From an uncultured Candidatus Saccharibacteria bacterium (GTDB lineage Bacteria > Patescibacteriota > Minisyncoccia > Minisyncoccales > GWA2-38-27), in NCBI GenBank assembly GCA_964394985.1, contig CAYMZK010000001.1, positions 63,957 through 127,956 of the forward strand: a stretch of 64,000 nucleotides of DNA, written 5' to 3'. Both the position numbers and the translations under genes were made by a program. Position 1 is the stretch's first letter. Each line of letters opens with the position of its first letter. This document shows, one piece after another, positions 16,597-44,599 of this stretch. The notes under the pieces are model-generated. The model was not told the origin of the DNA. It searched no databases and saw only the letters and a program-made list of their open reading frames with translations.

Positions 16597-16711
16597 GAAC
16601 ATTGTAAGGGAGCGATCTACTTTCGCGCAAAGCACTATCATCGACCTTAAGAGATTTCACTTCCGTGTTCGGAATGGGAACGGGTGGAGCACTCTCAGTA
16701 TTACCCCCTTA
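16597..16711 (-). rRNA. rrf: 5S ribosomal RNA
   Basis: Minus strand contains CCACCCGUUCCCAUUCCGAACACGGAAGUGAAA. Terminal helix ttgtaaggg/cccttacaa. Confidence 0.8.
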
Positions 16712-17624: not shown

Positions 17625-18117
17625 GATATTGCCTTAATATTTTATTGTCCTCAAGTATATTGTACCATTTGAATCTTAGGACTGTAAAGATTAATGGTCA
17701 CTGCAACAATAAAACAATGAAGGTTTCATCGTTATTAGTCGGTTTGTCATCATAGATTGCTCTATGAAGTAGCAATTTCTTACTAAGACCAACTCCACTC
17801 AAGATTCGACGCCTGCAGTAGATAGGGACCAACCTGTCTCACGACGGTCTGACATATTAATCTTGTATTACTACAAGTACGGACTATATCTTTCCTTTTT
17901 TACAAGGACTAGCGTATTGTAATAGTTTGTACCTATTACCTCGTTTTAAAAAACTCAGTCTCTACGGGGACAAATTTATATCTCATTGAATCTGGGATAT
18001 AGAAAATTGTCTTCCCACGATATCATCCATTATTTCATTATATCATGAAATAATTAGGACTTCACCGTTATTAGCTAGTTTTATCTGGGCTCATGTTCAC
18101 TTACCCAGCTCGCGTGA

Positions 18118-18150
<33 letters not shown>

Positions 18151-19046
18151 GCGGTTCCACCCCCAGGATGCGCCGAGCCGACATCGCTGTCTTTGTTTTC
18201 TTCTATTTCTAGAAGGATCGGACTATATCTTCACCCAGTTGCAATCAACAACTTAGGGGCTGACGTATTATAGAAGGTTTAAAATCTTCCATCTGCTCTA
18301 TTTAGAGCAAGTCTCTACGGGGTCATTACCCAATGATGAGTAAGACTTCCCACGGTATTACCCATTATTTTATTATACCATAAAATAATTAGGGCTTCAC
18401 CGTTATAAGTCAGTTTTTTCGTCTCATTATTTAATGAGATATGATGTTACTATCATAGCACCCCGATATGTTAAGGTGCCGAACAGTGCCGTTGATATGG
18501 ACTCTCGGGCACTACTAGCCTGTTATCCCCGGGGTAACTTTTAGCTGATAATCTTCGAATTTTCTAAAAAAATTCGTCGGTTCACTAAGTTCTAGTTTCC
18601 TAACTGCGCAACAAATACGTTTTGCAGTAAAGCTGGCTTATGGCTTTGTCCGACCATTCCGATTTCCATCCGGAATTAGCCAACCTTTAAGCTTCTCCAT
18701 TACACTTTAGGAGAAAAGTGCCCCACTTAAACTACCCATTAAACACTGTCCTCCGAAAAAATCAGAGTTAGAATTAAGCCTTTAAAAGAGTGGTATTTCA
18801 CTGGCGACTCCGCTCCAACCGAAATCGGAGTTTCAAAGTCTCCCACCTATGCTACGCATCTAAAAACAAAACCCAATATCTAACTATAGTAAAGCTCCCG
18901 GGGTCTTTCCGTCTAGCTGCAGGTAACCGGCATCTTTACCGGTATTGCATTTTCACCGAGCGGTTCTTGGAGACAGTCCTCCAGTCGTGAAGCCTTTCAT
19001 GCGGGCCAGAACTTCATGTTAATTCCATTATTTCTAATGGCATAGA

Positions 19047-19511
19047 CTATATCTTCATCTCATTAAAAGAATCAAGAATCTTCTTTTTGTTGTATATTCG
19101 TTTTCCAGAAGAATTCATTACAGATACTAAATCCATAATTTCGATTATCCCTTTTTTAGTTAAATGATCTCCGTTTTTCATCTTTCGGCAAATAATTTCA
19201 AAAGTTTCAAAATCTTTTTGCTTGCTAGATAATAATGGATATCTTTTAAAATGGGGGATAATTTTTGTTAATAGAGCATTAAGATTTCTCGTTTCAAATT
19301 TTAAAGTTTTATCACAAACATTTTTTCTGATAAAGCCACACTTGAAATAATTTTTAATTAATCTTAATACTTCTGCTCTATTTTCATTTTGAGCTACTGA
19401 AAAACCAGCTACAACTTCCCAACGAAGTTTATTCTTATTTCGCGGACGAATAGAGACGCAAAAGCATCCCTCTCCATCTATATATCCGCTAATATATGAT
19501 TCTAAATTCAT
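19047..19511 (-). CDS. intron-encoded LAGLIDADG homing endonuclease
   Basis: YISGYIDGEGCFCVSI motif; located inside the 23S gene. Confidence 0.8.
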   Translation of the reverse strand: MNLESYISGYIDGEGCFCVSIRPRNKNKLRWEVVAGFSVAQNENRAEVLRLIKNYFKCGFIRKNVCDKTLKFETRNLNALLTKIIPHFKRYPLLSSKQKDFETFEIICRKMKNGDHLTKKGIIEIMDLVSVMNSSGKRIYNKKKILDSFNEMKI

Positions 19512-19844
19512 AATAAGAGTCGGCGTTTTATGATGGTTAATTTACTCCCCACCATCTTAACTAGATAGTTAAAGTCGTTACGGGGTCATTTAAGACTTCC
19601 CACGGTATTACCCATTACTTTATTATACCATAAAATAATTAGGGCTTCACCGTTATAAGCCGAATTCCTACTAGAAATCACTTTCTAGACAGGCAATTTC
19701 TTACCTGGCAAGAGATTACGCTACCTTTGGACGGTTATAGTTCATATACCGTATTTCCCTATATCGCTATAAGGCTTGGACTATATCTTCACCCACTCCC
19801 GTGATGGGAGTTAGGGGCTTGACGTGTAGTCTCTGAGGATTCTT

Positions 19845-20360
19845 CTAATAAGAGCTCAAGATTTGTTTCTTGGAGTATTTCCGTTCTCGGCCGACTAGGA
19901 TAAGATCTCTTAACTTTAAGATTTCTTCCATGCCGGTTTTTTTGAGATGTCTCTTCTTTTTAAGTATGTCTGTGATTTTACAAAAAACTTCAAACACTTT
20001 TTTCTTATTCTCTGATAACAGAGGATAATTTCTGAAAAAAGGAATGACAATTTTTATAATATCTTCCAGTTTTCTTGTTTCAAAATAACATATCCCATCC
20101 TTACGATAACGAATTGTTCCACAATTTAAGAATTTCTTAAATATTTCAGGAACCGTATCGTCTTTCTGAGAAATATTGAACGATAATGAAACCTTCCATC
20201 CATACCTATAATCATCTCTTTTGATTAGAGAGACATTAAAACTTCCTTCTCCATCCGCAAATCCACTCAAATAATAACCGAGGCTCTTACTAGCAGTCTT
20301 TCCTGCTGATTGTCCGCAATTGTACATTTTCACTGCCATAATCTTACTATTATTATACAA
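19845..20360 (-). CDS. intron-encoded LAGLIDADG homing endonuclease
   Basis: YLSGFADGEGSFNVSL motif; located inside the 23S gene. Confidence 0.8.
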   Translation of the reverse strand: MYNNSKIMAVKMYNCGQSAGKTASKSLGYYLSGFADGEGSFNVSLIKRDDYRYGWKVSLSFNISQKDDTVPEIFKKFLNCGTIRYRKDGICYFETRKLEDIIKIVIPFFRNYPLLSENKKKVFEVFCKITDILKKKRHLKKTGMEEILKLRDLILVGRERKYSKKQILSSY

Positions 20361-21822
20361 GATAACGGCGAGTAGTACAATATGCCCGGAGTTTCCAGCA
20401 TATGGTCAAGTTATTTTTTCTAAGAATTACTTCTTAGTGCGGCAACTTTCTTACCGCCGACGTTCACTGGCGCTTCGAGCAGTCAGCCCAAGTGATAAAT
20501 CACTAGGACCGCCACTGTTAACGTTCCAGCACTGGTCAGGCCTCAACCCCTATACATCTTCTTACGAATTAAGCAGGGATCTGTGTTTTTGATAAACAGT
20601 CGCCAGAGGTCTTTCGCTGCGGCCTCGCTTAAGCGAGGCAAGGCATATCCCGAAGTTACGCCTGCTGTTTTGCCGAGTTCCTTCAAGAACTTTCACTCGT
20701 TCACCTTAGTACACTAATACCAACCCACCTGTGTCGGTTTGCGGTACGGATTTCATATCCCTAACTTTTAAGAACTTTTCCAGGTAGCTTGATCACACAA
20801 GTTTGCTTCATCCGAAGAATCAGCTCAACTGCAAATCCAATAATGCACCTTGTTTCACAAACTACGTCATCCTTAAAAAAAGATATGAAAGGGCCGGAAT
20901 ATTAACCGGCTGTCCATCCCTTACTACCCTTCGGTAGCAAAGTTAGGACCGCCTAACCCTTGGCTGATTGCCATTGCCAAGGAAACCTTGGGTTTTCGGT
21001 GTGCGGGGCTTTCACCCGCATTGCGGTTACTCATGCCAACATTCTCTCTTCTTAACGCTCCACCAAACCTCACGATTTAGCTTCAGTGCATTAAGAATGC
21101 TCCCCTACCGATTATTGTAAACAATAATCCCTTATCTTCGGCATATAACTTGAGTCCCGTAAATTTTTGGCGCAAAATTCCTTAGCTAGTAAGCTGTTAC
21201 GCACTTTTTGAAAGATAGCTGCTTCTAAGCTAACTTCCTAGCTATCAATGGAGTTTCACTTCCTTCAAAACACTTAGTTATAATTTAGGGGCCTTAGATG
21301 AAGATCTGGGCTGTTTCCCTTTCGACCATGGAGCTTAGCCCCCACAGTCTAACTGTTTGTAAACATTTTCCGGCATTCGGAGTTTGATTGGAAGATCCGA
21401 GCGAAAGCCCAAGAAATTCCATTCAGTGCTCTACCTCCAGAAAACTATATACAAATGCTAGCCCTAAAGCTATTTCGGGGAGAACCAGCTATTACCAAGC
21501 TCGATTAGCTTTTCACTCCTTACCACAACTCATCCCAGAGTATTGCACGGCTCAAGGGTTCGGGCCTCCTTCTATCTTTCGATAGAGTTCACCCTGGTCA
21601 TGGCAAGCTCGCTTGGCTTCGGGTCTTAAGCATTCTCTCAATTGTTCGCGCTTTTAACACTCGCTTTCGCTACGCCTCAATCCCGGAAGGATTCAGACAA
21701 AGAAAACACTTAAACTCGTTGGCTCATTCTTCAATAGGCACGCCATCACCCCGCTAAAAGCGGAGCTCTGACTCCTTGTAAGCAAAATGGTTTCAGGTAC
21801 TATTTCACCGCCCTCACCGGGC

Positions 21823-21862
<40 letters not shown>

Positions 21863-22602
21863 AGATATCGTAGTATTTAGCCTTGGCCGATTAGTCCGGC
21901 CTGTTTCCTACAGGGTTTTCTTTCCCCATAGTACTCAAGTAAAATAACAAGGAGCACGAATAAATTTTTAAGTACAGGACTATTACCTTCTATGGTCACC
22001 CTTTCCAGGGATGTTCCTCTAACCTATTCGCCTTTTTATTCTCCCTCGGCAAACATTCTATTTCCCAAAAAGAGAAATAGAATACTCCCGACGTTATTCC
22101 CTTACAACCCCACATTAAAAAATATGGTTTGGGCTTTTCCCTTTTCGCTCGCCGCTACTTGGGGAATAAAATTATTTTTCTTTTCCTCCGCTTACTGGGA
22201 TGTTTCACTTCAGCGGGTTCGCCATCCGACATACATCGGATTAATATGGGTTTACCATATTGCGTTTACGCATTCGGAAATCTCCGGGTCAAAGGTTGCT
22301 AAACACCTCACCGAAGCTTATCGCAGTCACGCCACGTCCTTCATCGCCTTGATATCCCTAGGCATCCACCATTTGCTCTTAATAATGTTGGCTAATAATT
22401 AATAATTGTAATTGCTAGACAGTATTCAATTGACAACGTTCTTACCCATTCAGGATAAATAAAAAACCGCTTGGGGAGCGATTATTCGGACATACTATAA
22501 AATTCAGACTATATCCTACTCCCTTAGTTTTTTATATTTTATTTTCTTTATCATTGCACTATCAATCTTAACAAAACCAAGAAAGAGTGTCAATAGCAAA
22601 AA

Positions 22603-22635
22603 GAAAACCGCTTGAATTGTTCAAGCGGTTTTTTG
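22603..22635. terminator. bidirectional intrinsic terminator
   Basis: aaaaccgcttgaa-ttg-ttcaagcggtttttt is a perfect hairpin with A/T runs on both sides. It lies just downstream of the minus-strand gene ending at 22638. Confidence 0.6.
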
Positions 22636-22637
22636 TC

Positions 22638-23222
22638 TCAAGACCTACAAGACCTATCAGAAGCAATTAGCCAGCTGCCAATTGCTTTCCAAAAAGACAG
22701 AGAGAATAAATATTTAAGTCCGGCTGCTAGCCCGCATACTAGTCCGTATACTAGTCCAACTGCTAGTCCGTATACTAGTCCGGCTGCTAGTCCGTATACT
22801 AGTCCGGCTGCTAGTCCGTATACTAGTCCGGCTGCTAGTCCGTATACTAGTCCGAATGCTAGTCCGGCTACTAGTCCGAAGGCTAGTCCGAATGCTAGTC
22901 CGAATGCTAGTCCGAATGCTAGTCCGACTGCTAGTCCGACTGCTAGTCCGACTACTAGTCCGACTGCTATATTTTCATTATCCATAATCTTGCTGGTAAA
23001 CAACCAAACAAAAATTATAGAAAAGATGGGTCCTATGAGAATATCCCACCAACGGGAAACCTCAAAGGGGAGCTGAATAATTACTTGTTCGTTCCACTGG
23101 ATTTGAGCGACCGAAGGAACACTCCCAGCCACCAAATACCAGATTGCCCAAAAAAGAGCAATTAGCACTGCCGAAACCAGAGAGAATCGGCACATCATTG
23201 AAATCCTTCTTTCTTTTTCCAT
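22638..23222 (-). CDS. small membrane protein with (GLAx)n repeats
   Basis: N-terminal TM helices plus a GLAVGLAVGLAFGLAFGL... repeat. A terminator lies downstream. The plus-strand ORF 22612-23076, which encodes ASPYTSP repeats, is the mirror of the same repeat and overlaps the terminator, so the minus ORF is preferred. Confidence 0.45.
   Translation of the reverse strand: MEKERRISMMCRFSLVSAVLIALFWAIWYLVAGSVPSVAQIQWNEQVIIQLPFEVSRWWDILIGPIFSIIFVWLFTSKIMDNENIAVGLVVGLAVGLAVGLAFGLAFGLAFGLAFGLVAGLAFGLVYGLAAGLVYGLAAGLVYGLAAGLVYGLAVGLVYGLVCGLAAGLKYLFSLSFWKAIGSWLIASDRSCRS
22729..22960. repeat. 12/24-nt periodic tandem repeat (gctagtccg...)
   Basis: Seen directly: actagtccggctgctagtccgtatactagtccg repeated. 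Open frames exist on both strands. Confidence 0.65.
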
Positions 23223-25152: not shown

Positions 25153-25929
25153 TTATTTTTGAGAATTAAGTGTTGCACTTGAAGATTGAATGCAGCGTAC
25201 CTTTAATTCTATTCCAATAGGAATCTTTTTAAATCTATTGATTGTTTTTTGCTTTGTTAGTTCAGCTGTGGCCCTTCCTAATTTATCAGCTAAGATAAAT
25301 CCTGATTTTCTCTCAACGTGAGTAAGAATATGTTGTCTATCTTTTCCTAGGATAGTATCTCCTTCCCAGTCTCCAATTCTTGCCCTTTGATTTACAATCT
25401 CTGGTCGAGTATCAATTCTTCTCTTTTTAAGCTTCTCTCGCTCTTTCTCACGTATTCTAGTGCCATATCTACGTCGATACTTACCTTTTTGACATCTCAA
25501 ATATTTAACCAGATCTTTTCTTTCATTGTAGATATATTTGTAAATAGTATCTTTCCCAATATATTTCTTTTTATGGTTTTCATTCCATTTGCCAGCTATT
25601 TGATCCGGAGACCAATATTTCTTTAATTTCCTAATAATGTATTTTCTTAAAGATTTATCATTCTCTATCTTTCTAAATCTAGCATTAGCTTCAAGTCTTT
25701 TCTCTTTAGCTAATCTTTTAGATTTACTTACATAATACTTTCCATTTATTCCTTCTCCTCGTTTACGTTCTCGCCAGAGAGTAGTCCGACTTTTTCTTAA
25801 AAGCTTAGCTATTTCTTTCTTCTTTGCTTTAGTTCTTAACAGAACAGATAGCTGATTTTTCTGTTCTGGGGTAAAATGTTTGTAGGGCATGTTGTTTATC
25901 AAGTTAGTTATTAATTCCTTAATAATCAT
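25153..25929 (-). pseudogene. IS30-family transposase, C-terminally truncated (DDE domain largely missing)
   Basis: HTH region plus RIGDWEGDTILGK, an IS30-type motif. The protein stops about 40 aa later, so most of the catalytic domain is absent. The likely true start is MIIKE at 25929. The ORF-track extension to 26154 is hydrophobic junk. Confidence 0.65.
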
Positions 25930-25983: not shown

Positions 25984-26052
25984 GAATGTACCTACAAAAG
26001 ATTGACAAATCAAGAAAAAAGATGTAAGTTTGTATATTAACAGGAAATAGTT
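25984..26052. repeat. left copy of a ~65-bp inverted repeat (partner at 29072-29133)
   Basis: acaaaagattgacaaatcaagaaaaaagatgtaagtttgtatattaacaggaaatag matches the reverse complement of 29072-29133 with about 5 mismatches. Contains TTGACA-17nt-TAAGTT reading toward the flanked genes. Confidence 0.7.
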
Positions 26053-26098
26053 TCTTATTAAAAACAGTACTTTAACAAATAAATAGGAGGTATAAGCT

Positions 26099-26368
26099 AT
26101 GCAACGATCTTCAAAAGAGATTAAAGCACGGTGTGCTTGCATCCTCAGCAGCAAGAGTATTGTTACTCTTGTGGAAGCAAGCAGTAGTCCATCGGCTGCC
26201 TATGAGATGGTTTTTGCGGAAAGCAAAGACATTTTAATGGCAAAAGCTAGCAGATGGCTTGCGGTATTGCGTCGGAATTACCCCACCGAGTATCGTAGAC
26301 TCGTTCCAGCCCAACTCGGCCACGTCAGTAATGACACGGTACAGACAGAAAAGGAGACAAGGTTATGA
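26099..26368 (+). CDS. small hypothetical protein, translationally coupled to the PheRS-like gene
   Basis: AGGAGG sits 8 nt upstream of the ATG. The stop overlaps the next start (ATGA). GC-rich like the rest of the cassette. Confidence 0.4.
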   Translation: MQRSSKEIKARCACILSSKSIVTLVEASSSPSAAYEMVFAESKDILMAKASRWLAVLRRNYPTEYRRLVPAQLGHVSNDTVQTEKETRL

Positions 26369-27480
26369 AAAAGGAAGTCATGTCAGCAGAACGTCTGGAG
26401 GCCTCATTGGCAATACCAGACCTAACCGATCCCAAGAATGGGGTCCATGCCATCAATATTGTTGTCTATAACATTATGACGGCATTGCAGAGGGCGTATC
26501 CCGGAACGGCAGTTGAAGAAGTCCGACTGAACCCCGAGGTGTCCGTCAAAGAGAACTTCGACGACCTACTCTTCCCATCAGATAATGCTGGGAGGTCGTC
26601 TCGCTACACGAGATACGTCACCGAGAACACCGTCTTGAGAACCCACACTTCTTCCGCGATTCCGGGATGGCTCAAGAAAGTATCCCAAAACAGTGTCAAG
26701 GATACAATCGTCGTTTTGCCGGGTATGTGCTATCGCCGTGATGTGGTCGACAAGACACATTGTGGTGAACCGCACCAGATGGATGTGTGGCGAATCAAAT
26801 GTGGTCAACCACACTTCACCAGAAAAGACCTGATCTCTCTGGTGGAAACAATTCTTAACTGCATTGTTCCGGGTTGTGAATACCGGGCCAACGAGGTCAA
26901 ACATCCATACACCCTGAACGGCCTCGAGGTGGAAGTTTTGATGAATAGATCATGGCTGGAGATTCTGGAGTGCGGTGAGGCTCATCCAACCGTACTCAAA
27001 AACGCCGGTCTTGATTCGGAAGAATACTCCGGGCTTGCACTGGGCATGGGGCTGGATCGTCTCGTCATGATCATCAAGGGAATTGATGATATTCGAGTTC
27101 TGAGATCGGACGATGCGCGAATTAAAAGCCAAATGACAAATCTGGAGAAGTTCACCACCGTATCCGATCAGCCTGCGACCAAAAGGGTCCTCTCATATTC
27201 CACTTCGGTTGAAAAAACCGAGGAGGATATTTGCGAAGAAATTCGCGACGAGTTAGGTCCTGACGCTGTCTTTATTGAAAAGATCAAATACTCAGAGATT
27301 CCCTATGAACAGCTATCAGAGAAGGCTCGAACCAACCTTGGCATTCATCCTGACCAGAAAAATGTGGTGGCAACACTGACATTCCGATCGCTGAAAGGAT
27401 CTCTTCCTCGAACGATGGTCAACGATTGGATGCAACGTCTCTACCCGAAGTTAAACAGAGGGAGTCGAGGCTATATGTAA
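26365..27480 (+). CDS. PheRS alpha-like class-II aaRS paralog (catalytic core plus C-terminal FDX-ACB-like domain), divergent
   Basis: LRTHTSSAIPGW as motif 1. CYRRDVVDKTHCGEPHQMDVW as motif 2, with Pro replacing the usual Phe. GLALGMGLDRLVMIIKGIDDIRVL as motif 3. C-terminal ~100 aa resembles the ferredoxin-fold anticodon-binding domain. GC content is clearly higher than the flanks. Confidence 0.6.
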   Translation: MKKEVMSAERLEASLAIPDLTDPKNGVHAINIVVYNIMTALQRAYPGTAVEEVRLNPEVSVKENFDDLLFPSDNAGRSSRYTRYVTENTVLRTHTSSAIPGWLKKVSQNSVKDTIVVLPGMCYRRDVVDKTHCGEPHQMDVWRIKCGQPHFTRKDLISLVETILNCIVPGCEYRANEVKHPYTLNGLEVEVLMNRSWLEILECGEAHPTVLKNAGLDSEEYSGLALGMGLDRLVMIIKGIDDIRVLRSDDARIKSQMTNLEKFTTVSDQPATKRVLSYSTSVEKTEEDICEEIRDELGPDAVFIEKIKYSEIPYEQLSEKARTNLGIHPDQKNVVATLTFRSLKGSLPRTMVNDWMQRLYPKLNRGSRGYM

Positions 27481-27551
27481 TTGCCTGCTTATGCGGTAAA
27501 CTACATCATGAGGTTATGGACAAAAAATGTCTGTAGCCTCTTTTTTAATAT

Positions 27552-27585
27552 TAAAACCCCGTGTCAGTTTCCTGACACGAGGTTA
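27552..27585. terminator. bidirectional terminator between convergent aaRS-like genes
   Basis: aaaaccccgtgtcag-tttc-ctgacacgaggtt. Confidence 0.5.
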
Positions 27586-27587
27586 AG

Positions 27588-29036
27588 TTAAAATACTGGG
27601 AAAAGTTCGACATCCCTTATATCCTTTGCGTTAAGCAAAAGCATAAGAAGACGTTCCATCCCCATGCCAATTCCTCTGCAAGGAGGAAGCCCAAATTTCA
27701 TCGCTTCGATGATATCTTTGTTAATATCTCTATTCTGATCATCTCTGCGATAAGATAGCTGTTCCTCCATTCGGTGTTTGATAACCCTAGGATCACGCTC
27801 CGGGTTAACTAAGTCAGCAACCAGCATTCCATTAATTACAAGCAAGGTCTCATCGATAGTTGAACCATCGTCATTGACTTTGAAAAGCGGAGATTGGGCT
27901 GCCGGCAAATTTCTTAGAAAAACAGGTCCAGTGATGTTGGACATCATATGCGCATACAGTGACGTAGTCACTGTATACTTGTTCAACTTTGCGGGATGAG
28001 TAATTCCTGCTTTGTCTAGTAGATGCACGAGTTCTTCGATAGGACGTGATTCGTCATACCGGAGACCTGTGCATTTTTCGAGCTCATCATTAAAGTCACA
28101 TGATGGCCATTCGCCAGTGCAGTCAATCGACCCTTCAGTAGTTGGAATCGATATTGAACCGTAAAGTTGGACAAGAATTTCACATATCATGTCCCGCATC
28201 AGATTCTCCATTTCTTCCCTCGTCGCATATGCTCGATACAGCTCAAGAATCGTGAACTGGGGAAGCATGTCTGCAGTTGCACCCTGATTCCTGAATGATT
28301 TGCCGATCTCAAATACTTTTGAAAAACCAGCAATAATCAGTTTTCTAAGAAACAACTCGGACGTCAACCTCAGATACATATCCTTGTCATGTTCGGTCAC
28401 GTGCGTAACAAAAGGATCAGCCAACCCTGCTTCAAAGCTTTCCTGAAGCAATGTCATACTTAGCTCCTCATAGCCGTTGCTATAGAGGAACTGACGGATC
28501 ACTCTGAAGACTGTTGAACATTTGCGAAAGTGCAGAATCTTTTCTCGGTCTCGGATCATTTGAAGATGTCGATGAGCATACAAATTTGACCTCTTACAGA
28601 AATCGATATTGCTGTCATAGACATCTCCTGTTGCTTTGGAAAGTAACAAGACTTTCTCGCCAAGAAAAACATCGCCATTGGCTGTGCCAATCTTCACACC
28701 GTTCAACACCACGATGTCTCCATAATGAATCATGAAGTTTACCATGTTAATGTTTTTGGGTGTTCGAACAAGAAATGCCGGGATGGATGAACCGTTTCCT
28801 TCAATCCTTTCGAAATTGATGACTTCTTTGTCATACAGCTTGCTGAATACTCCGAGTTTGGAGATTTTACCAGTATTATCGGAAAGCATCAACCTCCCGA
28901 CAAGTGTAGCTCTTTCACCATTCCGAAGATTACCAAATGCATCGACTTCGATTGATCCCCTTGGTGCCTCGCGGCGATACGCAAAAGAATCATTTTCGAG
29001 GGCAAAAACCCTCTTTCTCTCGCTTTTTTTGGCCAT
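27588..29036 (-). CDS. class-II lysyl-tRNA synthetase-like protein with divergent active-site residues
   Basis: N-terminal OB-fold-like segment. The segment DMYLRLTSELFLRKLIIAGFSKVFEIGKSFRNQGATADMLPQFTILELYRAY aligns to LysS motifs 1/2; GLPPCRGIGMGMERLLMLLL..IRDVELFP aligns to motif 3. Several normally invariant residues are substituted. GGAGGTG SD. GC-rich. Confidence 0.7.
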   Translation of the reverse strand: MAKKSERKRVFALENDSFAYRREAPRGSIEVDAFGNLRNGERATLVGRLMLSDNTGKISKLGVFSKLYDKEVINFERIEGNGSSIPAFLVRTPKNINMVNFMIHYGDIVVLNGVKIGTANGDVFLGEKVLLLSKATGDVYDSNIDFCKRSNLYAHRHLQMIRDREKILHFRKCSTVFRVIRQFLYSNGYEELSMTLLQESFEAGLADPFVTHVTEHDKDMYLRLTSELFLRKLIIAGFSKVFEIGKSFRNQGATADMLPQFTILELYRAYATREEMENLMRDMICEILVQLYGSISIPTTEGSIDCTGEWPSCDFNDELEKCTGLRYDESRPIEELVHLLDKAGITHPAKLNKYTVTTSLYAHMMSNITGPVFLRNLPAAQSPLFKVNDDGSTIDETLLVINGMLVADLVNPERDPRVIKHRMEEQLSYRRDDQNRDINKDIIEAMKFGLPPCRGIGMGMERLLMLLLNAKDIRDVELFPVF

Positions 29037-29071
29037 AAGACACCTCCTCTGATTGGTTTGTTAATGAACTA

Positions 29072-29133
29072 TTTATAACAAAAACCTATTTCCTATTAAT
29101 ATACAAACCTACATCTTTTTTCTTGATTTGTCA
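29072..29133. repeat. right copy of the ~65-bp inverted repeat
   Basis: Reverse complement matches 25984-26052; sits immediately upstream of the minus-strand LysRS-like start. Confidence 0.7.
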
Positions 29134-29146
29134 ATCTTTTGTTGGC

Positions 29147-29686
29147 CTAATTCTTTTTAAAAATATCGTATTTAAAATCCTTGTATGTCATAGATGGACG
29201 CGGCCCAGTGCTATTTTGATATTTTCCCTCGTATAAAACTATGTCACCCAAGGGAACCCAAAAACTTACTTGGGCTATCAGCATGCCCGGGTATAACCTG
29301 ACAGGAAGAGTTGCATACAATTGGAATGTTGTAACTCCATGAGAGCCTATATCAATTAGGTCAGCGGTGACATGAACAAATAAACCCATTCTTGCCGTGC
29401 CAGATTTACCATGTATTAAGGGAACATAGAAATCACTACCTATACTCTCTCTGGAATGTCCCAACACAAAATCACCGGCATTAAGTACTAACCCATCCTC
29501 AGGAATAGTTATCTCTTCATAAGATGCTTGGCGTTTCGGATCAATTATGTCTTGTTTGTACCGAACAATTGTGTTTCCAAGTGATAAATCGTATGAATTA
29601 GTCGTTACACGGATTTTGTCAAATGGATCGATGTCAATTTTTCTTTTTTTAACTTCTACTATTATTTTTTTACCAGTGAGTATCAT
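29147..29686 (-). CDS. dCTP deaminase/dUTPase-superfamily paralog, probably catalytically degenerate
   Basis: Same fold signature as the upstream paralog (GMLIAQVSFW; HGKSGTARMGLFVHVTADLID). The conserved Arg/Ser of GRSS and the Glu of LEF are replaced (GKSGTAR; FQLYA). Confidence 0.55.
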   Translation of the reverse strand: MILTGKKIIVEVKKRKIDIDPFDKIRVTTNSYDLSLGNTIVRYKQDIIDPKRQASYEEITIPEDGLVLNAGDFVLGHSRESIGSDFYVPLIHGKSGTARMGLFVHVTADLIDIGSHGVTTFQLYATLPVRLYPGMLIAQVSFWVPLGDIVLYEGKYQNSTGPRPSMTYKDFKYDIFKKN

Positions 29687-30201
29687 ATACTTTGGTGTTT
29701 GATTAACGGTACGTAAGATTCTTGTGGGTGATTGAGATGTCCATATCTTCCGTCATATTTTCTCACTGTTCCAAAATTCTTCCAGAAAGATACCTGCCCA
29801 ATGATCATTCCTGGGTATAATTTAATTGGTATTGCGGCAACAATTTCCAATGTCCATTTATGCTCGGAAGTCGTATGACCAAGATTGGCTGATGCCTGCA
29901 AAAATAAACCGTATCTACCCATAGAGCTTCTTCCGATTAGAGACATAGCATATTTTGAACTGCCAATCACTTCTTTGGTGGTAGCCAGGTACATTTTTCT
30001 TGGTTCCAAAACATACCCATCTTCGGGCATTTTTACTTCCTTAAATAGAGCTTTTTTACCATCAAACCCATTAAAGACCTTAATAGTTGAATCGAGTCGG
30101 TAATTGTAACTATTTGGATTAACCTGATTTTGGGAAAACGGCTCAATAACAATATTTCTAGAATTAATCTCTTCTTTGATTTTACTTCCGGTTAAAATCA
30201 T
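29683..30201 (-). CDS. dCTP deaminase (Dcd) family protein
   Basis: MILTGSKIKEE...IEPF N-terminus. GRSSMGRYGL, TLEIVAA and PGMIIGQVSFW align to the Dcd catalytic region. 4-nt overlap with the next gene. Confidence 0.65.
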   Translation of the reverse strand: MILTGSKIKEEINSRNIVIEPFSQNQVNPNSYNYRLDSTIKVFNGFDGKKALFKEVKMPEDGYVLEPRKMYLATTKEVIGSSKYAMSLIGRSSMGRYGLFLQASANLGHTTSEHKWTLEIVAAIPIKLYPGMIIGQVSFWKNFGTVRKYDGRYGHLNHPQESYVPLIKHQSI

Positions 30202-30203
30202 AA

Positions 30204-31028
30204 TTAAAATAATTCAACAAATCTGTTGGGATATACATTTTTTCTATACCTTAAAACCAAGACGCTATACATCTGATATGGACGCAGATCATTCGACATT
30301 TTTTTGACTTCATAAAGTCTGTTATACATGGTTTTATAAACATCCTTGTCTTCAATTTTTAACATCTTACATGCACGGTCTATTGTACTTTTACAGTAAT
30401 AATGAAGCTCATCCTCTGTTTCTTGAACTAGATCATTTCGCTCTTCGAATACAACCTCAAGCTTGTTGTACAATTTCATAATCTCTTTGTATGGAACGGA
30501 TGTCGGTGTAATTTCAAATACTTTTTGTGCTATCTTGATCAATGCTTCTGGCATCGGTTTTGTCACATAAAAAGGCGATGCTAAAATATAACCACCATCG
30601 GTCAGCATACTTATGCATTTTTCTAGCATTTTTACAGGATCAGGAAAGAATCCAAGTGATGCCCCAACCACTATATGAGTAAATTGTTTTTTTGTTTCGA
30701 ATTTGTAGCCGTCCGCAACTTTATAGGAAAGATTTATATTAGGAGCATATTTTTCTTTATTATAATTAGCCATTTTTACAGACTTTACCGAAAGGTCAAA
30801 ACCTTCTCCCTTACACCCTGAAAGCAATGCCAGCTCTCGCGAAGAAAAACCAGTAGTACAGGCTATTTCTAATAAATTAGATTTTTTATTCAGATCGGAA
30901 AAGCGAGCCCATTTTGAAAGAGTGACGTACGATCCAGGCAAGACATTCCATTGATTAATTAAACCGACAAAATCCGTGTAAGAAAGATTTTTGATGTAAT
31001 CTGGTGTAATCGATGATTCTTTTTTCAT
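30204..31028 (-). CDS. class I SAM-dependent methyltransferase-fold protein (MccD-like by size and context)
   Basis: Motif I LLEIACTTGFSS, acidic post-I residue (GFD), motif LTDGGYIL; 274 aa. Confidence 0.55.
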   Translation of the reverse strand: MKKESSITPDYIKNLSYTDFVGLINQWNVLPGSYVTLSKWARFSDLNKKSNLLEIACTTGFSSRELALLSGCKGEGFDLSVKSVKMANYNKEKYAPNINLSYKVADGYKFETKKQFTHIVVGASLGFFPDPVKMLEKCISMLTDGGYILASPFYVTKPMPEALIKIAQKVFEITPTSVPYKEIMKLYNKLEVVFEERNDLVQETEDELHYYCKSTIDRACKMLKIEDKDVYKTMYNRLYEVKKMSNDLRPYQMYSVLVLRYRKNVYPNRFVELF

Positions 31029-31106
31029 AATTTTATTAAATTATAATTTGTATACCGGTGGTATTGGTTGAATAAAATTCTGTGCCAGAGAATATGTGAG
31101 TGCACC

Positions 31107-32279
31107 TTAATTTGGCACAACGATAAAATCACTCTCCCTTATTTTTTTAGAGTAGCAACCATAACCCCAGATATCCCAAGTCGTGCATAGATTGCCCCAC
31201 ATATTACACCCGATTTCTTTTTTTGAAGGGTTAGATATGTTAACCAGCGGAAAGTATTCATATTCAAAACGTTGCCAGCCCACCATATTTACTCCACCAT
31301 CTAGAACCACATTGTTATCATCTTTCCTATCTGCAACTGATAAAACTACAAACATAGAATCATTACAAATAATTCTTCCTGGTTCTGAGTAATACGTGGT
31401 ATCTAAAATCGGGCTTAAATAGGTTCGAATTGCCGTGCCTATCCTTTTTGCATATGCTTCAATCTTTATAGCATTACGGACCAGATAATCATGTCCTTGT
31501 TTAGTTTTTTTTATGATGCCCTCCGATTCGTAGACTTCGAATCCTCCTCCAAAATCAATATACTTAATCTTTCTCAGATCGTCCGTTTTAATCTTATTCT
31601 TAAGATAGATACCAAGCTCTTTGATAGTATTCTCGTAAAAAGAAGCGTCCTTATTTCTCGACATATGAAAATGTATTCCGCTGAGATCGATAAAAGGATA
31701 TTTTTTGGCTCTTTCCCAGAACTTTTTTAGATTTGTTATATGAATGCCATATTTTTTCCAGTCTCCAGATAAATCCGTATGCACTCTGATTCCTGCTTTG
31801 ATCTTGTTTTTAAGATGATTGGTTAATCTACCAAGTTTATCCAACTCACTAAAACTATCCATATTGATGGTAATGACTGATGAGTATTTTAGGGCATGCT
31901 TTAAATCATCCTCTGTTTTACCAGGACTAAAATACAAGATATCCTTACATCCAGCCTCAATGGCCATATCTATCTCTCTAGGACTACCAACATCCAAACC
32001 AAGACCTTTTTCTACGACATATTTAATGATGAAAGGATGATGATTAATCTTCATGGCGTAATAAGCATTGAATGAGGGTAATTCTTTTTTGAAAGAATTT
32101 AAAAACAAGTCGGTGGAATCATTAAGAGTTTTTTCGTCAAAAACGTAGAAAGGGGTCTTATATTTATTGGTCAGATTTAAAATGCCTCTTTTATTTTTGA
32201 GGACGCAACTGACTACATGATAAAGTTTATTTTCTTTATTGGACAGTATTTTATTTGATTTTATGCCGGTATTTTTCAT
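31107..32279 (-). CDS. fold-III PLP-dependent decarboxylase (Orn/DAP/carboxynorspermidine decarboxylase family; MccE N-domain-like)
   Basis: TPFYVFDEKTL...NAYYAMKINHHPFIIKYVVEKGLGLDVGSPREIDMAIEAG matches the N-terminal TIM-barrel signature with the PLP-binding Lys in YAMK. FGGGFEV glycine-rich loop. Confidence 0.7.
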   Translation of the reverse strand: MKNTGIKSNKILSNKENKLYHVVSCVLKNKRGILNLTNKYKTPFYVFDEKTLNDSTDLFLNSFKKELPSFNAYYAMKINHHPFIIKYVVEKGLGLDVGSPREIDMAIEAGCKDILYFSPGKTEDDLKHALKYSSVITINMDSFSELDKLGRLTNHLKNKIKAGIRVHTDLSGDWKKYGIHITNLKKFWERAKKYPFIDLSGIHFHMSRNKDASFYENTIKELGIYLKNKIKTDDLRKIKYIDFGGGFEVYESEGIIKKTKQGHDYLVRNAIKIEAYAKRIGTAIRTYLSPILDTTYYSEPGRIICNDSMFVVLSVADRKDDNNVVLDGGVNMVGWQRFEYEYFPLVNISNPSKKEIGCNMWGNLCTTWDIWGYGCYSKKIRESDFIVVPN

Positions 32280-32297
32280 ATGTCGTTTAGTAGTCAG

Positions 32298-33305
32298 CTA
32301 TACTACAGCTTTTTTGAAAGTTATTCGTTTTTCTTTTGTGTTAATTTCGGCAATTCCTCCATTTGGTATAGTTATCAAAGGATCAGAATGTCCAAAATCT
32401 ACGTTATAAAACACTGGAAACTTAGCGTCAGAAAAATACTCTTTAAACATATCTTTCAGAGAATCCTCTGGCGAGAAACTGGATTGTTCGGTAAATCTCC
32501 CCACAACTAAACCTGCGATTTTATCGAACCACCCGAGCTGCTTGCATTGACAAAGAAACCTATCAATATGAGATGGCGTACTTGTTTCATCCTCTTCAAT
32601 AAAAAGGATTTTACTCGTCATATCGGGTAAATACTGAGTTCCTTGTAAAATCAATAAAGTTTGAAGGTTGCCAACAACCACCTCACCGATCGCATCCCCC
32701 TGATTAAATACCTTTATACCCTGGTTAGCTTTTTTAATGCGATGATCATTGTCTTTTCTTAAGAAATAAAGGTCGTCAGCGTATTCTTTAGATGGTTCAA
32801 TCGTTATGTCTTCTCGAGGCTCAATACACATTTTTTCAAAATAATCCCATGTGTAATCGAATGGTTCTGGTTTTGCGAAAGAAATAACCCCGGGTCCGGA
32901 GAATGTGATCAATCCCGTTTTAGTTGTAATGGCGGTTGTTAATGCTGTCACATCAGAATAACCAATAAAAATTTTTGGATTCTTCTTGATTAGTTCATAA
33001 TCTAATTGATCAAGAAGTTGATTGGTATTAAAACCACCCCAGAAAGCCATAATACATCCTATGTCATCTCTCTTTGCGAAATTATGAATATCCTCAATTC
33101 TAAAAGAGGCTGTTCCGGCTGTATGTTTTTGTGTGAGCAGTTTTACGGAACGACCTTCGACAATTGAAAATCCTTTACTTTTTAAATACTCATAACCTCT
33201 TTTAATAGTATTTTCGGGACACACGCCAGCGACAGGATCAGCCGGAGCAATAATGCCCATCGATTTATTTTTATCAAGCCTTGGAGGTAATATTTTTTTC
33301 ATCAT
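32298..33305 (-). CDS. S66 family LD-carboxypeptidase-like serine peptidase (LdcA/MccF family)
   Basis: MGIIAPADPV start, FWGGFNTNQLL, and IFIGYSDVTAL with the nucleophilic Ser in a GxSD context; 335 aa. Confidence 0.7.
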   Translation of the reverse strand: MMKKILPPRLDKNKSMGIIAPADPVAGVCPENTIKRGYEYLKSKGFSIVEGRSVKLLTQKHTAGTASFRIEDIHNFAKRDDIGCIMAFWGGFNTNQLLDQLDYELIKKNPKIFIGYSDVTALTTAITTKTGLITFSGPGVISFAKPEPFDYTWDYFEKMCIEPREDITIEPSKEYADDLYFLRKDNDHRIKKANQGIKVFNQGDAIGEVVVGNLQTLLILQGTQYLPDMTSKILFIEEDETSTPSHIDRFLCQCKQLGWFDKIAGLVVGRFTEQSSFSPEDSLKDMFKEYFSDAKFPVFYNVDFGHSDPLITIPNGGIAEINTKEKRITFKKAVV

Positions 33306-33536
33306 ATTTTTAATTCACTAATTCATTAATTAAAATATATAGTGCTACATAATTTATAATTAGACGCATTAACCCTATTAGTCATAAAACACATTTTCGT
33401 TTGCTTTTTTCTGTTCTGTGTTTTTCAGCATAAAACTTATTATTTTAGAATACCATTATTAGACAAAAAATCAACTTTTATTTACAAAAAAGCCCATTCT
33501 TTGATGATATAAAAATGGGCTATAATTTTTAGAGAT

Positions 33537-33848
33537 TTATTTTACTTCAATTATCGGTTCCGTATTTATTGGATAGCAGTAGCTAAGTTTAATTTCCACG
33601 TATTCGCCTTCAAGATTTTTTGCTTTCGCTATAACTATTGTCGTGCTACTACTAACCCACACATCTTGATCACGGTTACTTTTTGTCTCTTTATTGATAA
33701 TTTCTATGTCAGTATATCCTTTTTCTTGAAGAGTTTTTATTACATTGGGCTCATCTGGAATACTAGCCACGAAAGAAACAATAAAAAACACAAAGATAAT
33801 CAAAATAATCACACCAGATAATACTTTACGCATAATCATCCCTTTCAA
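33537..33848 (-). CDS. hypothetical membrane-anchored small protein
   Basis: N-terminal TM helix; 103 aa. Confidence 0.4.
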   Translation of the reverse strand: MKGMIMRKVLSGVIILIIFVFFIVSFVASIPDEPNVIKTLQEKGYTDIEIINKETKSNRDQDVWVSSSTTIVIAKAKNLEGEYVEIKLSYCYPINTEPIIEVK

Positions 33849-33862
33849 TTATTAAATTGTTA

Positions 33863-34043
33863 AAACTGAGAAATCTCAGCACTGTCTGCACTATAGCAAT
33901 AATTATCTCAAAAGTCAAATTTCTGTACTAGTCCATATGATATGATACACCAAAAGACCCTTGAAAAACATAAAGACCGACGCATCGAAGACCATCTTCG
34001 ACACATAGTTCAGTTAAATGTATGAAGGTTCAACCTTCATACT
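33863..34043. repeat. copy 1 of a ~180-bp intergenic repeat (identical copy at 53688-53868)
   Basis: Identical read-through ttaaaactgagaaatctcagcactgtctgcactatagc...gtatgaaggttcaaccttcata. Three internal palindromes: ctgagaaatctcag, tcgaagaccatcttcga, tatgaaggttcaaccttcata. Confidence 0.8.
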
Positions 34044-34315
34044 AAAAATAGTCCCATGGATCGGTCAATCGAACAAAATCAGATGTGTAATATCTATCTG
34101 AACCTAGTTCTGAATCTAGACACCCCTCGTTAGGTTGCTCGGCCAAGCCGAGCAACCTAGTTACAAACGTAAGAAACTAACTAAGTGTATCATACGTATC
34201 TGAACCTAGACATTACTTTCTTGTGGTTATGCTAAAAATTTGCCATAATAGCTAGTATAAATATCTTCTTAAAAAGAGCGATCGTTTTACTAATTAAGCG
34301 GTCTGAAAAGTATTA

Positions 34316-35458
34316 TTATCGTAAGATCGCATTTAAGTCCTTTTTTGTTTTCTCGCGGATTCTATCCTGAATTTTATTGATTTCCTCGCTAGTCAAAGTC
34401 CTTTCAAATGAACGGTACATAATCCGAAATGTATAAGATTTTTTATTTTTACCAAATTTATTTTCATCCTCATATTCGTCCAGCAACTTTACTTCTTCAA
34501 TTAAGTTGTCGGCAAAATCTCTTACAATTTCGTAATAATTGTTTATATTTATATCTTTATCGATTATAAAAGAAATATCTCTTGACGTTACAGGGTATTT
34601 ACTAACTTCTTCATACTTGCTATTGATGTCTTTAAACTGTTTGGTTATCCGCGGATCGTCCGACCATAAAATTCTTATATCAGGAATGCCCATTTTTATC
34701 ATGGCTAATCTGTCGCCAAACCCAAAGGCCCAGCCGTTGTAAATTTTTGGATCTAATCCAAAATTTTTAAGACATTGGGGGTGCACAAGACCAGCTCCAT
34801 TTACTTCCATCCATTCACCGTTAAATTTAATATCCATTTCTAGGCTTTCGGTTGTATAGGGGAATTTGTCAGGAATAAATTTCCATTCAATATCGGGACC
34901 AAAAATTCCTTTTGCTAGTTTAACCTGTACGTCTTTTAAATCTTCTTGTGTAATTGTTTTTTTTGACTTTTCACATATTAATAAACCATCAATTTGATGA
35001 AAAGCTGGGTAATGATTTCTATCAATTTCATCTTTTCTAAAAACAATCCCATAGGATAACGCTTTTATTTCTCCGTCCTTTTTTAATCTTTCTAAAACTT
35101 CTGAGTCTTTCAAATAAAAAGACCAAAAAGCTGTTGTGTGTGTACGCAAAAGATGAATATCATCTAAATAATAGGTATCTGTCTCTCGTCTAGCAGAATG
35201 GTTTTTTGGCATATTCAAAAGATCAAAACATTCCTCAATAGTTACAATTTTAGGAAAGTCAACAAGATCAAAATCTTTAAACATCGGTAGGTTTATTATT
35301 TGATCAAATAAAATTTTTACAGGAGATTTTTCTTTTTTTGTTAAGTCTGGAAGTGCTAAAAATCTCTTGATGCGCTCTGCCTTAACATCTTTTCTTTTAT
35401 TCAACTCTTCTAGCAAAAGCTTTTTATTCTTATTTTTTATTATAATTTTTCTATTCAT
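34316..35458 (-). CDS. PheRS alpha-like protein with C-terminal FDX-ACB-like domain (monomeric, mitochondrial-type architecture)
   Basis: HSARRETDTYYLDDIHLLRTHTTA as motif 1. YGIVFRKDEIDRNHYPAFHQIDGLLI as motif 2. GWAFGFGDRLAMIKMGIPDIRIL as motif 3. C-terminus YPVTSRDISFIID...KKSYTFRIMYRSFERTLTSEEINKI resembles the anticodon-binding domain found at PheT and mitochondrial PheRS C-termini. Short N-terminus without the bacterial PheS coiled coil. Confidence 0.65.
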   Translation of the reverse strand: MNRKIIIKNKNKKLLLEELNKRKDVKAERIKRFLALPDLTKKEKSPVKILFDQIINLPMFKDFDLVDFPKIVTIEECFDLLNMPKNHSARRETDTYYLDDIHLLRTHTTAFWSFYLKDSEVLERLKKDGEIKALSYGIVFRKDEIDRNHYPAFHQIDGLLICEKSKKTITQEDLKDVQVKLAKGIFGPDIEWKFIPDKFPYTTESLEMDIKFNGEWMEVNGAGLVHPQCLKNFGLDPKIYNGWAFGFGDRLAMIKMGIPDIRILWSDDPRITKQFKDINSKYEEVSKYPVTSRDISFIIDKDININNYYEIVRDFADNLIEEVKLLDEYEDENKFGKNKKSYTFRIMYRSFERTLTSEEINKIQDRIREKTKKDLNAILR

Positions 35459-44058: not shown

Positions 44059-44059
44059 A

Positions 44060-44596: not shown

Positions 44597-44599
44597 ATT

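Follow-up and report, generated by a model that had tools for sequence, protein, structure and literature searches.

Two aminoacyl-tRNA synthetase paralogues between inverted promoter repeats: probably a self-protection or toxin-making module in Patescibacteria

Introduction

Why should a bacterium keep two aminoacyl-tRNA synthetase (aaRS)-like genes face to face, between the arms of an inverted repeat? The case arises in a stretch of 64,000 nucleotides (nt) of contig CAYMZK010000001.1, from an uncultured Candidatus Saccharibacteria bacterium; this whole stretch is hereafter the window, and the best relatives of its proteins are from Patescibacteria. The pair consists of a lysyl-tRNA synthetase (LysRS)-like gene and of srmL, a gene related to that of the phenylalanyl-tRNA synthetase (PheRS). 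The initial annotation, made from the sequence alone, saw in it either a horizontally acquired cassette or the inside of a mobile element, and proposed that extra aaRS copies of this kind serve self-resistance or biosynthesis. The last proposal is supported in outline: the genes adjacent to the pair encode homologues of MccD/AgnB1, of the N-terminal part of MccE and of MccF/AgnC5, i.e. of the microcin C (mcc) and agrocin 84 (agn) clusters, and these fit it. The locus of the pair is thus probably a new module for self-protection or toxin production, and not a jumping element.

Results

The aaRS pair is one end of a conserved block with mcc and agn homologues

The pair forms one end of a conserved 7.3-kb block (window 25994-33345). 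The repeat arms, the genes and the terminators are as follows.

25991-26090 (+): left arm of the inverted repeat, promoter and 5' leader of ORF89-srmL (repeat comparison and conserved architecture in relatives)
26099-26368 (+): ORF89 (ORF, open reading frame), conserved small protein of 89 codons (homologues upstream of srmL in 14 loci)
26365-27480 (+): srmL, PheS-related single-chain class II ligase (NF051887, 400 bits; catalytic core and ferredoxin-fold C-terminal domain)
27510-27540 (+): terminator-like hairpin and T-run after srmL (terminator scan)
27584-27555 (-): terminator-like hairpin after the LysRS-like gene, at 27555-27584 (terminator scan)
27588-29036 (-): LysRS-like class IIb paralogue, with oligonucleotide-binding (OB) fold, catalytic core and remodelled adenylate site (profiles, residue mapping, AlphaFold2 model)
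29046-29145 (-): right arm of the inverted repeat, promoter and 5' leader of the LysRS-like gene
29147-29686 and 29683-30201 (-): two tandem dCTP-deaminase-like genes (PF22769; TIGR02274 98.8, above cutoff, and 74.5, below)
30204-31028 (-): MccD/AgnB1-like S-adenosylmethionine (SAM)-dependent transferase (homology to E. coli MccD and AgnB1)
31107-32279 (-): pyridoxal phosphate (PLP)-dependent decarboxylase of the ornithine/diaminopimelate/arginine (Orn/DAP/Arg) fold, similar to the MccE N-terminal region (PF02784 and PF00278)
32298-33305 (-): S66 peptidase of the MccF clade (PDB sequence search; AgnC5 homology)

Read from its far end the block keeps the same order in more than 15 loci: an XRE-family gene in some of them, then the S66 peptidase, the PLP decarboxylase, the SAM transferase, the two dCTP-deaminase-like genes and the LysRS-like gene, followed by the convergent srmL-ORF89. 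Convergence of srmL with an adjoining LysRS-like gene is found in 21 of the 22 distinct LysRS-like loci, and a MccF-like gene is linked to the aaRS pair in four different gene arrangements.

In the synthesis of microcin C, MccD and MccE1 install an aminopropyl group, and MccF hydrolyses the toxic aminoacyl-nucleotide (PMC8323819). For agrocin 84 the AgnA protein, which has an aaRS-type adenylation domain, is the proposed maker of the phosphoramide bond, while AgnB2 is an inhibitor-insensitive leucyl-tRNA synthetase (LeuRS); some mcc-like clusters also carry aaRS genes as presumed immunity (PMC8323819). The SAM transferase of the block is homologous to E. coli MccD over its full length (29% over 264 aa, E 6e-35) and matches AgnB1 (25% identity, E 9e-22). 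Its homologues occur in 46 of 72,556 plasmids; among the matches listed, enterobacterial mcc plasmids are the most frequent and pAgK84-type plasmids come next, the pAgK84-type match being AgnB1, which adjoins agnA. The PLP decarboxylase aligns with the N-terminal region of MccE (24% over 202 aa, E 5e-8). The S66 peptidase scores 213 bits with the MccF-like BA_5613 of B. anthracis, 150 with E. coli MccF and 57-101 with LdcA-type enzymes, and is 31-32% identical to MccF and AgnC5 (31% and E 9e-45 for AgnC5, E ~1e-41 for MccF). The two dCTP-deaminase-like genes share 38% mutual identity, only the first passes TIGR02274, and they are syntenic in all window-type clusters. They have no match among the PADLOC defence models, for which the sole match was a generic methyltransferase-domain one.

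Neither E. coli MccB (ThiF-like; tblastn) nor the MccC exporter has a match in the window or in any fetched locus, and there is no AgnA-like gene in the window or in the window-type loci. No precursor-peptide gene was identified, seven-codon ORFs being not reliably recognisable.

A second variant of the cluster is carried by three loci, L072, L010 and L077 (fetched loci are numbered with an L). Its order is AgnA-like, AdoMetDC (S-adenosylmethionine decarboxylase)-like, AgnB1/MccD-like, AguB-like CN (carbon-nitrogen) hydrolase, carbamoyltransferase, MccF-like, LysRS-like and convergent srmL. The AgnA-like product is an AsnA-like protein at the level of an AgnA orthologue (32% over 340 aa, E 5e-46), reduced in L072 to a catalytic core of 350 aa, and the AgnB1/MccD-like enzyme matches with an E of 3e-48. 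Homologues of AgnA and AgnB1 thus lie in one operon, two genes apart, and a pyruvoyl AdoMetDC-like decarboxylase takes the place of the PLP enzyme. What recurs is a set of proteins: a MccD-like transferase, a decarboxylase with one or the other of two unrelated folds, a MccF-like peptidase and both aaRS paralogues.

Other neighbours were recorded around these genes. A gene of 70 aa for an XRE-family helix-turn-helix protein stands directly upstream of the MccF-like gene in L066 (2237-2449), L068, L069, L075 and L076, and at the end of L002; the window lacks it, and there a small membrane-protein ORF takes up that space (33345-34316). Next to srmL in L006, L007, L008 and L016 lies a radical SAM/SPASM gene of NirJ/AhbD-like type, to which agnC7 of pAgK84 may be compared. 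The GNAT gene beside srmL in L006 was considered as a MccE2 homologue and rejected, the two having no similarity.

SrmL is a PheRS-like protein nearly free of phenylalanine

SrmL belongs to NCBIfam NF051887, "PheS-related mystery ligase SrmL" (400 bits for a cutoff of 300, over profile positions 2-349 of 349), and stays below the cutoffs of the canonical PheRS families (116 vs 237 for TIGR00468, 131 vs 258 for TIGR00469, pheS_mito). Its AlphaFold2 model has a mean confidence (pLDDT) of 89.8. The best PDB match of the model is the full-length human mitochondrial PheRS 3CMQ, with a TM score of 0.76 over 381 columns, and the superposition takes in the C-terminal ferredoxin-fold anticodon-binding domain as modelled; more distant SrmL members match PF03147. 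The motif-2 and motif-3 ATP-binding arginines, LRTHTS and the Q..D pair are kept, and the pocket motif is HPY where PheRS has FPF.

The family is found in Patescibacteria, Nostocales, Pseudomonas, Gemmatimonadota and Myxococcus, and srmL is also present without a LysRS-like gene, both in other Patescibacteria and in other phyla. Apparent neighbour clusters 1 and 2 of srmL outside Patescibacteria turned out to be antisense shadow ORFs. In 35 of 36 loci no dedicated tRNA lies beside the pair. The only family-adjacent tRNA found is in L031, a tRNA-Phe(GAA) at 7196-7268 (-), 44 nt downstream of a distant SrmL-like gene (5878-7152, +) whose product is 45% identical and has a normal phenylalanine (Phe) content.

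SrmL of the window has 6 Phe in 371 aa (1.6%). This scarcity is family-wide: the Patescibacterial SrmL have a median of 5 (range 0-9, 120 cluster representatives), those of Nostocales, Gemmatimonadota and Myxococcus contain 0-1.6% Phe, several with none in 337-393 aa, and those of Pseudomonas 0.3-1.3%. After an exhaustive HMMER search, 23 of the 68 full-length representatives at 50% identity proved to have no Phe at all. Across five phyla SrmL is almost or fully devoid of this residue. By comparison the other ORFs of the fetched loci have medians of 3.3-4.7% according to the group, and the ordinary single-chain PheRS family a median of 23 Phe (6.0%). At background frequency the probability of no Phe in 337 residues is about 5e-6. 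Conserved Phe positions in alignments of E. coli PheS and of the PheRS of the window, FPF included, are replaced in SrmL by Y, P, H, L or M.

Other SrmL-like paralogues have a normal Phe content, and some of these lie next to a Phe-poor copy. In L008 (4089-5204 and 6778-7998) and in L011 (5938-7113 and 7252-8379) a second SrmL-family paralogue with 3-4% Phe adjoins the Phe-poor SrmL.

Proteins that a cell must make during scarcity of an amino acid, or of the tRNA charged with it, are known to be depleted in that amino acid (PMC4209129), and a duplicated threonyl-tRNA synthetase is used under stress in Anabaena (PMC4787780). The Phe avoidance of SrmL likewise points to a role when Phe-tRNA is unavailable.

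ORF89, overlooked in the initial annotation, precedes srmL, its stop overlapping the srmL start (ATGA). It has two conserved cores, SSSPSAAxEMxFA and KAGRWLAVLRRDY, and a C-terminus in ...ETRL, with no match in Pfam, NCBIfam or PADLOC. In L074 (~3389-3568) SrmL carries the first 60 residues of ORF89 as an in-frame fusion, and the near-identical L076 has two genes; the fusion is either real, and would then hint that the two proteins interact physically, or the result of misassembly.

The LysRS-like protein keeps a lysine-type pocket in a rebuilt catalytic site

The LysRS-like protein stays under the lysS cutoffs (264 vs 468 for NF001756, 220 vs 427.6 for TIGR00499) and under that of EpmA/GenX (115 vs 287 bits). 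Its relatives form about 75 clusters, 51-92% identical and all of ~482 aa; the few members with a taxon name are Patescibacteria, and a sharp gap separates them from true LysRS, the next matches being 31% identical. On these comparisons the gene appears to define a family restricted to Patescibacteria. The AlphaFold2 model (pLDDT 77.8) has a beta-barrel at residues 40-133 followed by a class IIb core, and its top Foldseek matches are full-length LysRS.

Residues were mapped in what we take to be the numbering of E. coli LysU. The lysine-pocket residues E240, E278 and Y280 are kept, as are the motif-2 and motif-3 arginines. E264 is changed to Q, R269-H270-N271 to D-M-L, and E414 and E421 to L; these substitutions are invariant or nearly invariant across 25 family members.

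The pair is very probably not the housekeeping set of the lineage

Seven kb away from srmL the window holds a further PheRS gene:

34316-35458 (-): single-chain PheRS of mitochondrial type, 380 aa, with PF01409 core and PF03147 FDX-ACB domain (Pfam domains)

It has the GC content of the host (31%) and a normal Phe content. There are 3,503 homologues at E <= 1e-20; the best 120 of these are 78-90% identical and those with a taxon name are Patescibacteria, one Candidatus Wolfebacteria protein being 87% identical. This is likely the ordinary enzyme of the lineage, which, judging from these homologues, appears to use a monomeric PheRS for this purpose. Our literature searches found no paper that describes a single-chain PheRS in Patescibacteria.

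Thus srmL is an extra copy and not the sole pheS. That the two paralogues are simply the LysRS and PheRS of the organism is hardly credible, even if both have full aaRS architecture and no canonical lysS is seen among the ORFs scanned in the window. Besides the conserved PheRS at 34316-35458, this explanation has against it the scores of both proteins, far under the curated lysS and pheS cutoffs, the presence of the LysRS-like family in a subset only of Patescibacteria and its loss of conserved catalytic residues. SrmL is, moreover, found in Nostocales and Pseudomonas. Both groups have pheST.

A duplicated promoter and leader precede both transcription units

The arms of the repeat (25991-26090 and 29046-29145) are 100 nt long, 86% identical and separated by 2,955 nt. 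The repeat first described as 65 bp is real, but those 65 bp are only its best-conserved outer part, and the similarity extends to the ribosome-binding sites. A core of 41 nt (26000-26040 vs 29096-29136) has one mismatch and exactly two copies in the window; it had no match in 100 shuffles of the window. As had been noticed at the outset, each arm contains a promoter-like element oriented inward; it reads TTGACA-17 nt-TA(A/G)GTT, with TTGACA at 26002-26007 and TAAGTT at 26025-26030 in the left arm, TTGACA at 29134-29129 and TAGGTT at 29111-29106 on the minus strand in the right arm, both with a 17-nt spacer. The -10 hexamers of both arms are weak (agreement with the consensus at 3 of 6 positions), so that a generic promoter scan misses these two promoters. 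The right arm does stand directly upstream of the LysRS-like gene, as first proposed for each copy and its gene, whereas the left arm precedes ORF89 and not srmL itself. The leader parts are:

26039-26059, approximately (+): weak hairpin of the left arm
26067-26078 (+): box GTACTTTAACAA of the left arm
26085-26090 (+): Shine-Dalgarno AGGAGG of the left arm
29069-29058 (-): box GTTCATTAACAA of the right arm

The conserved leader box is the GTTCnTTnACAA box. In about 30 distinct upstream regions from relatives, taken from both genes, the same architecture is found: TTGACA-17-TAnnnT, usually a hairpin, the box G[TC][AT]CnTT[ACT]ACAA, 8-15 nt, then AGGAGG. This box has only two sites in the 64-kb window, one per arm. 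The hairpin varies in sequence among relatives with its pairing kept, and it beats shuffled sequences in 16 of 16 cases (z -1.7 to -3.3). A search of the leaders against Rfam, T-box and riboswitches included, gave no relevant match even at E <= 10. The same motifs being upstream of both genes in these relatives, the proposal that one duplicated promoter and 5' untranslated region drives both units is supported. With promoter and leader present twice in the form of the inverted repeat, the two units, ORF89-srmL and the LysRS-like gene, would be switched on together. This common leader may be a new cis-regulatory element.

Distant relatives have only these regulatory motifs in common between their two arms. 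The two regulatory regions therefore seem to have evolved in concert in the window and in its closest relatives, where the arms are nearly identical.

The cassette is GC-rich but co-diverges with its neighbours

The segment between the arms is GC-richer, as the initial annotation had it, and its values are now numerical: 47% for ORF89, 48.7% for srmL and 43% for the LysRS-like gene (43-49%), vs 35% for the window and 34-37% for neighbouring genes. Third-position GC is 0.44-0.54 in the cassette genes vs 0.20-0.39 in 22 other ORFs of the window. Also borne out were the convergence of the PheS-like gene (26365-27480, +) with the LysRS-like gene (27588-29036, -) and the truncated IS30 transposase directly outside the left repeat (25153-25890, -; positions 2-186 of a 267-position IS30 profile). 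The single bidirectional terminator was not: the two hairpins at 27510-27540 (+) and 27584-27555 (-) stand there face to face instead. In relatives srmL keeps 46-49% GC wherever its flanks have 35-44%, despite saturated synonymous sites. For this reason the high GC is not the footprint of a recent transfer.

The idea of a separately acquired or mobile cassette bounded by the repeat is not supported, on several grounds. Homology to L002, L063 and L066 (89-91% nt identity) begins at the outer boundary of the left arm (25994-26001), crosses the cassette and the right arm, and ends at ~33345 in L002, at 33311 in L066 and with the contig in L063. The same neighbours flank the right arm in all relatives. 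In every comparison the synonymous-site identity of the two aaRS genes equals that of the neighbouring genes, so that a recent separate transfer of the two-gene cassette is rejected. The outer flanks of the arms, gtagaatgta and cctaattctt, show no target-site duplication, and next to or inside the cassette there is no intact transposase or recombinase gene, only the truncated IS30 fragment nearby.

It is accordingly very improbable that the repeats bound a non-autonomous mobile element, or an invertible segment, with the two genes as its cargo, as a long inverted repeat around a compositionally distinct segment beside an IS30 remnant might suggest. Two comparisons speak for such a unit: the public Logan contig L001 (3143 bp) ends inside both arms, and L080 and L072 differ as if the two genes had been inverted as a unit relative to the MccF-like gene. 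The break of L001 is nevertheless most simply that of a de Bruijn assembler at an inverted repeat, as we infer. Moreover the homology stops only at the left arm and continues past the right one into the next genes, the cassette co-diverges with these neighbours, the sole transposase-related gene nearby is truncated, no target site is duplicated, and the arms are promoter and leader regions of which distant relatives keep only the regulatory motifs. Nor would an inversion switch expression, because both promoters point inward.

Mobility of the block as a whole is a separate matter. Direct repeats of 98-144 nt (90-99% identical) flank the entire block in L065 (428-568 and ~8617-8758) and in L066 (2000-2097 and ~9910-10007), with sequences that differ between the two genomes; none was found around the 7.3-kb block in the window. 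From genome to genome the sequences that border the block mostly bear no relation to one another, a hint either that the block moves as a unit or that repeats insert there as in a hotspot.

Other features of the window

The 23S rRNA gene (18026-22387, -) spans a match of 4.36 kb for a model of 2.9 kb, with ~1.4 kb of insertions and with ORFs inside the span at 19047-19511 and 19845-20360. The 5S rRNA (16604-16711, -) lies 1.3 kb from it, with an ORF at 17112-17624 between the two. These insertions and ORFs may be rRNA introns or homing-endonuclease genes. The region 41383-46750 (-), with an 891-aa protein having ResIII helicase and TnsA-like endonuclease domains next to a 716-aa N6/N4 DNA methylase, is probably a restriction-modification or related system.

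The two strands of a low-complexity repeat at 22612-23222 read (ASPxTSP)n and (GLAxGLV)n, the latter in a membrane-protein-like ORF. Two very large ORFs, at 2740-6441 (-) and 8923-12549 (-), encode 1233 aa that match nothing in Pfam and 1208 aa with lamin-tail domains, and a Fic-domain protein is encoded at 60837-61973 (-); the large ORFs and the Fic protein are unrelated to the aaRS pair. Related contigs labelled Thermotogota, Hyphomicrobium and Gammaproteobacteria were taken to be mis-binned metagenome contigs.

Discussion

What the pair may do

The anatomy of the locus, the family assignments, the synteny, the common leader, the homologies and the Phe depletion are direct results; the enzymatic activities, the existence of a product and the target of that product we infer. 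Our preferred reading, held tentatively and with slightly less than even confidence, is that the two paralogues are the aaRS arm of a block akin to the "Trojan-horse" antibiotic clusters that deal with mimics of aminoacyl-adenylates, with SrmL as an immune or backup PheRS and the LysRS-like protein as a ligase or an immune copy. The block would handle or make such a mimic. SrmL would be a single-chain substitute for PheRS that, having almost no phenylalanine, could still be translated when charging of tRNA-Phe is blocked; it may thus serve for immunity or for a "reboot", with the resistant LeuRS AgnB2 as its analogue. The LysRS-like protein, which keeps a lysine-type pocket and would have had its ATP/Mg site rebuilt, may be a ligase that builds the aminoacyl-nucleotide warhead, the role proposed for AgnA, or a second inhibitor-insensitive copy of a target. 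A bolder form of this scheme we regard as doubtful: SrmL would be an "emergency" PheRS stripped of Phe that rebuilds charging from zero after the poisoning of PheRS, paired and co-regulated with a rewired LysRS-like ligase, the two together forming the core of an unrecognised, MccB-independent route to aminoacyl-nucleotide antibiotics.

Several observations weigh against the Trojan-horse reading. The window-type block lacks AgnA-like, MccB-like and exporter genes, and has no candidate for a coupling enzyme besides the aaRS paralogues. The similarity to the MccE N-terminal region is modest, and the decarboxylase, AdoMetDC-like and AguB-like genes could point to polyamine chemistry. A Phe-type immune enzyme and a Lys-type ligase are not an obvious match. 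The LysRS-like protein has lost both Mg-ligand glutamates and the Arg and His of the motif-2 loop, which argues against ordinary tRNA charging, and a lysine avoidance in its family, looked for as the counterpart of the Phe avoidance, was not seen. SrmL-like paralogues with normal Phe content also have HPY, so that this motif is not merely a product of the purging of Phe. No conserved srmL partner was found in the loci of cyanobacteria, Pseudomonas, Gemmatimonadota and Myxococcus, the two leader hairpins of the window itself are weak (z 0.0 and -0.6), and the NCBI itself labels SrmL a "mystery ligase".

Both paralogues might instead be biosynthetic ligases that do not charge tRNA for translation and that join a Lys-like or Phe-like amino acid to a nucleotide or amine acceptor; the pair would then replace MccB or AgnA as the core, the MccD-like enzyme and the decarboxylase would tailor the product, and the MccF-like enzyme would protect the producer. 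That the window-type block offers no other candidate for the coupling step speaks for this, as does AgnA, itself a class II aaRS-like adenylating enzyme and the proposed maker of the phosphoramide bond; the adenylate site of the LysRS-like protein is remodelled, and near srmL elsewhere in Patescibacteria there are radical SAM/SPASM genes (four loci) and GNAT, AsnB-like and PLP-decarboxylase genes (1-2 loci each). Yet the anticodon-binding domains of both proteins are complete, in contrast to the AgnA-like protein of L072, which is a catalytic core only, and a ligase function leaves unexplained the family-wide avoidance of Phe in the stand-alone srmL of cyanobacteria, Pseudomonas and others. 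On balance we find this explanation unlikely, if a serious one. Less probable again is that the block is no antibiotic cluster, its paralogues serving the synthesis of dinucleoside polyphosphates or alarmones, the modification of polyamines by aminoacylation or of the cell envelope, or tRNA modification. LysRS and PheRS are classical synthetases of diadenosine tetraphosphate (Ap4A), and several loci have NUDIX genes close to srmL (the window has one at 38322-38744). Enzymes of polyamine type (the Orn/DAP decarboxylase fold, the AdoMetDC-like enzyme, the AguB-like CN hydrolase) and an aminopropyl or aminocarboxypropyl (acp) transferase of the methyltransferase fold are present, and L014 and L023 have a TilS-like PP-loop neighbour. 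However, the MccD-like homologues are rare among plasmids and, among the matches listed, concentrated in mcc/agn-type ones; the S66 enzyme is of the MccF clade and not of the LdcA clade; and the second variant has its AgnA and AgnB1 homologues two genes apart in one operon.

Comparison with known systems

Compared with the microcin C cluster, the block has homologues of MccD, of the N-terminal decarboxylase of MccE and of MccF, contiguous in a run of genes on one strand; it differs by having no MccB or MccC homologue, with aaRS paralogues in place of the core. With the agrocin 84 cluster of pAgK84 it shares an AgnB1-like enzyme and a MccF-like one (AgnC5) and, in the second variant, the protein at the level of an AgnA orthologue; in the agrocin 84 cluster aaRS-related proteins act as proposed synthetase and as immunity. 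The window-type block nevertheless lacks AgnA and most other agn genes, and its host belongs to another phylum. The closest parallel to the pair itself is offered by AgnB2 and by AbmK, the seryl-tRNA synthetase of albomycin: here also an extra aaRS of full architecture stands beside AgnB1-like and MccF-like genes, and in L072 one operon has the AgnA- and AgnB1-like genes with the LysRS-like gene downstream of them, which is also the position of agnB2 in pAgK84. Unlike those cases, the present one has two paralogues of different specificity, of which the LysRS-like one lacks residues thought essential for adenylation.

At the level of the proteins, the LysRS-like one shares with class II LysRS the OB fold, the class IIb core, the pocket residues and the arginines, and retains the N-terminal OB domain that EpmA/GenX and AsnA lack. 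SrmL shares with human FARS2 (3CMQ) the class II core, the C-terminal ferredoxin-fold anticodon-binding domain and the ATP-binding arginines; it is only 23% identical, has HPY and not FPF, and is almost free of Phe. The depletion of a cognate residue and the duplication of an aaRS are each matched by the precedents cited above (PMC4209129, PMC4787780). NF051887 names the SrmL family without a function having been found for it, and none of the literature searched mentions the family; nor did our searches turn up the pairing of SrmL with a LysRS-like protein, the MccD/MccF-like context, the Phe avoidance of SrmL or any aaRS-like protein nearly without its cognate residue.

Extra aaRS copies in clusters for aaRS inhibitors, and mcc/agn-like tailoring and immunity genes, are thus of known kinds; the one feature found in none of the literature searched is an aaRS paralogue that has almost dispensed with the amino acid presumed to be its substrate. 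These results provide the first testable functional leads for SrmL, a widespread family of "mystery" enzymes, and suggest that ultra-small, host-dependent Patescibacteria carry blocks related to the chemistry of microcin C and agrocin 84, built on aaRS paralogues and not on MccB. If this is true, it would widen the known routes to natural products that target aaRSs, and to resistance against them.

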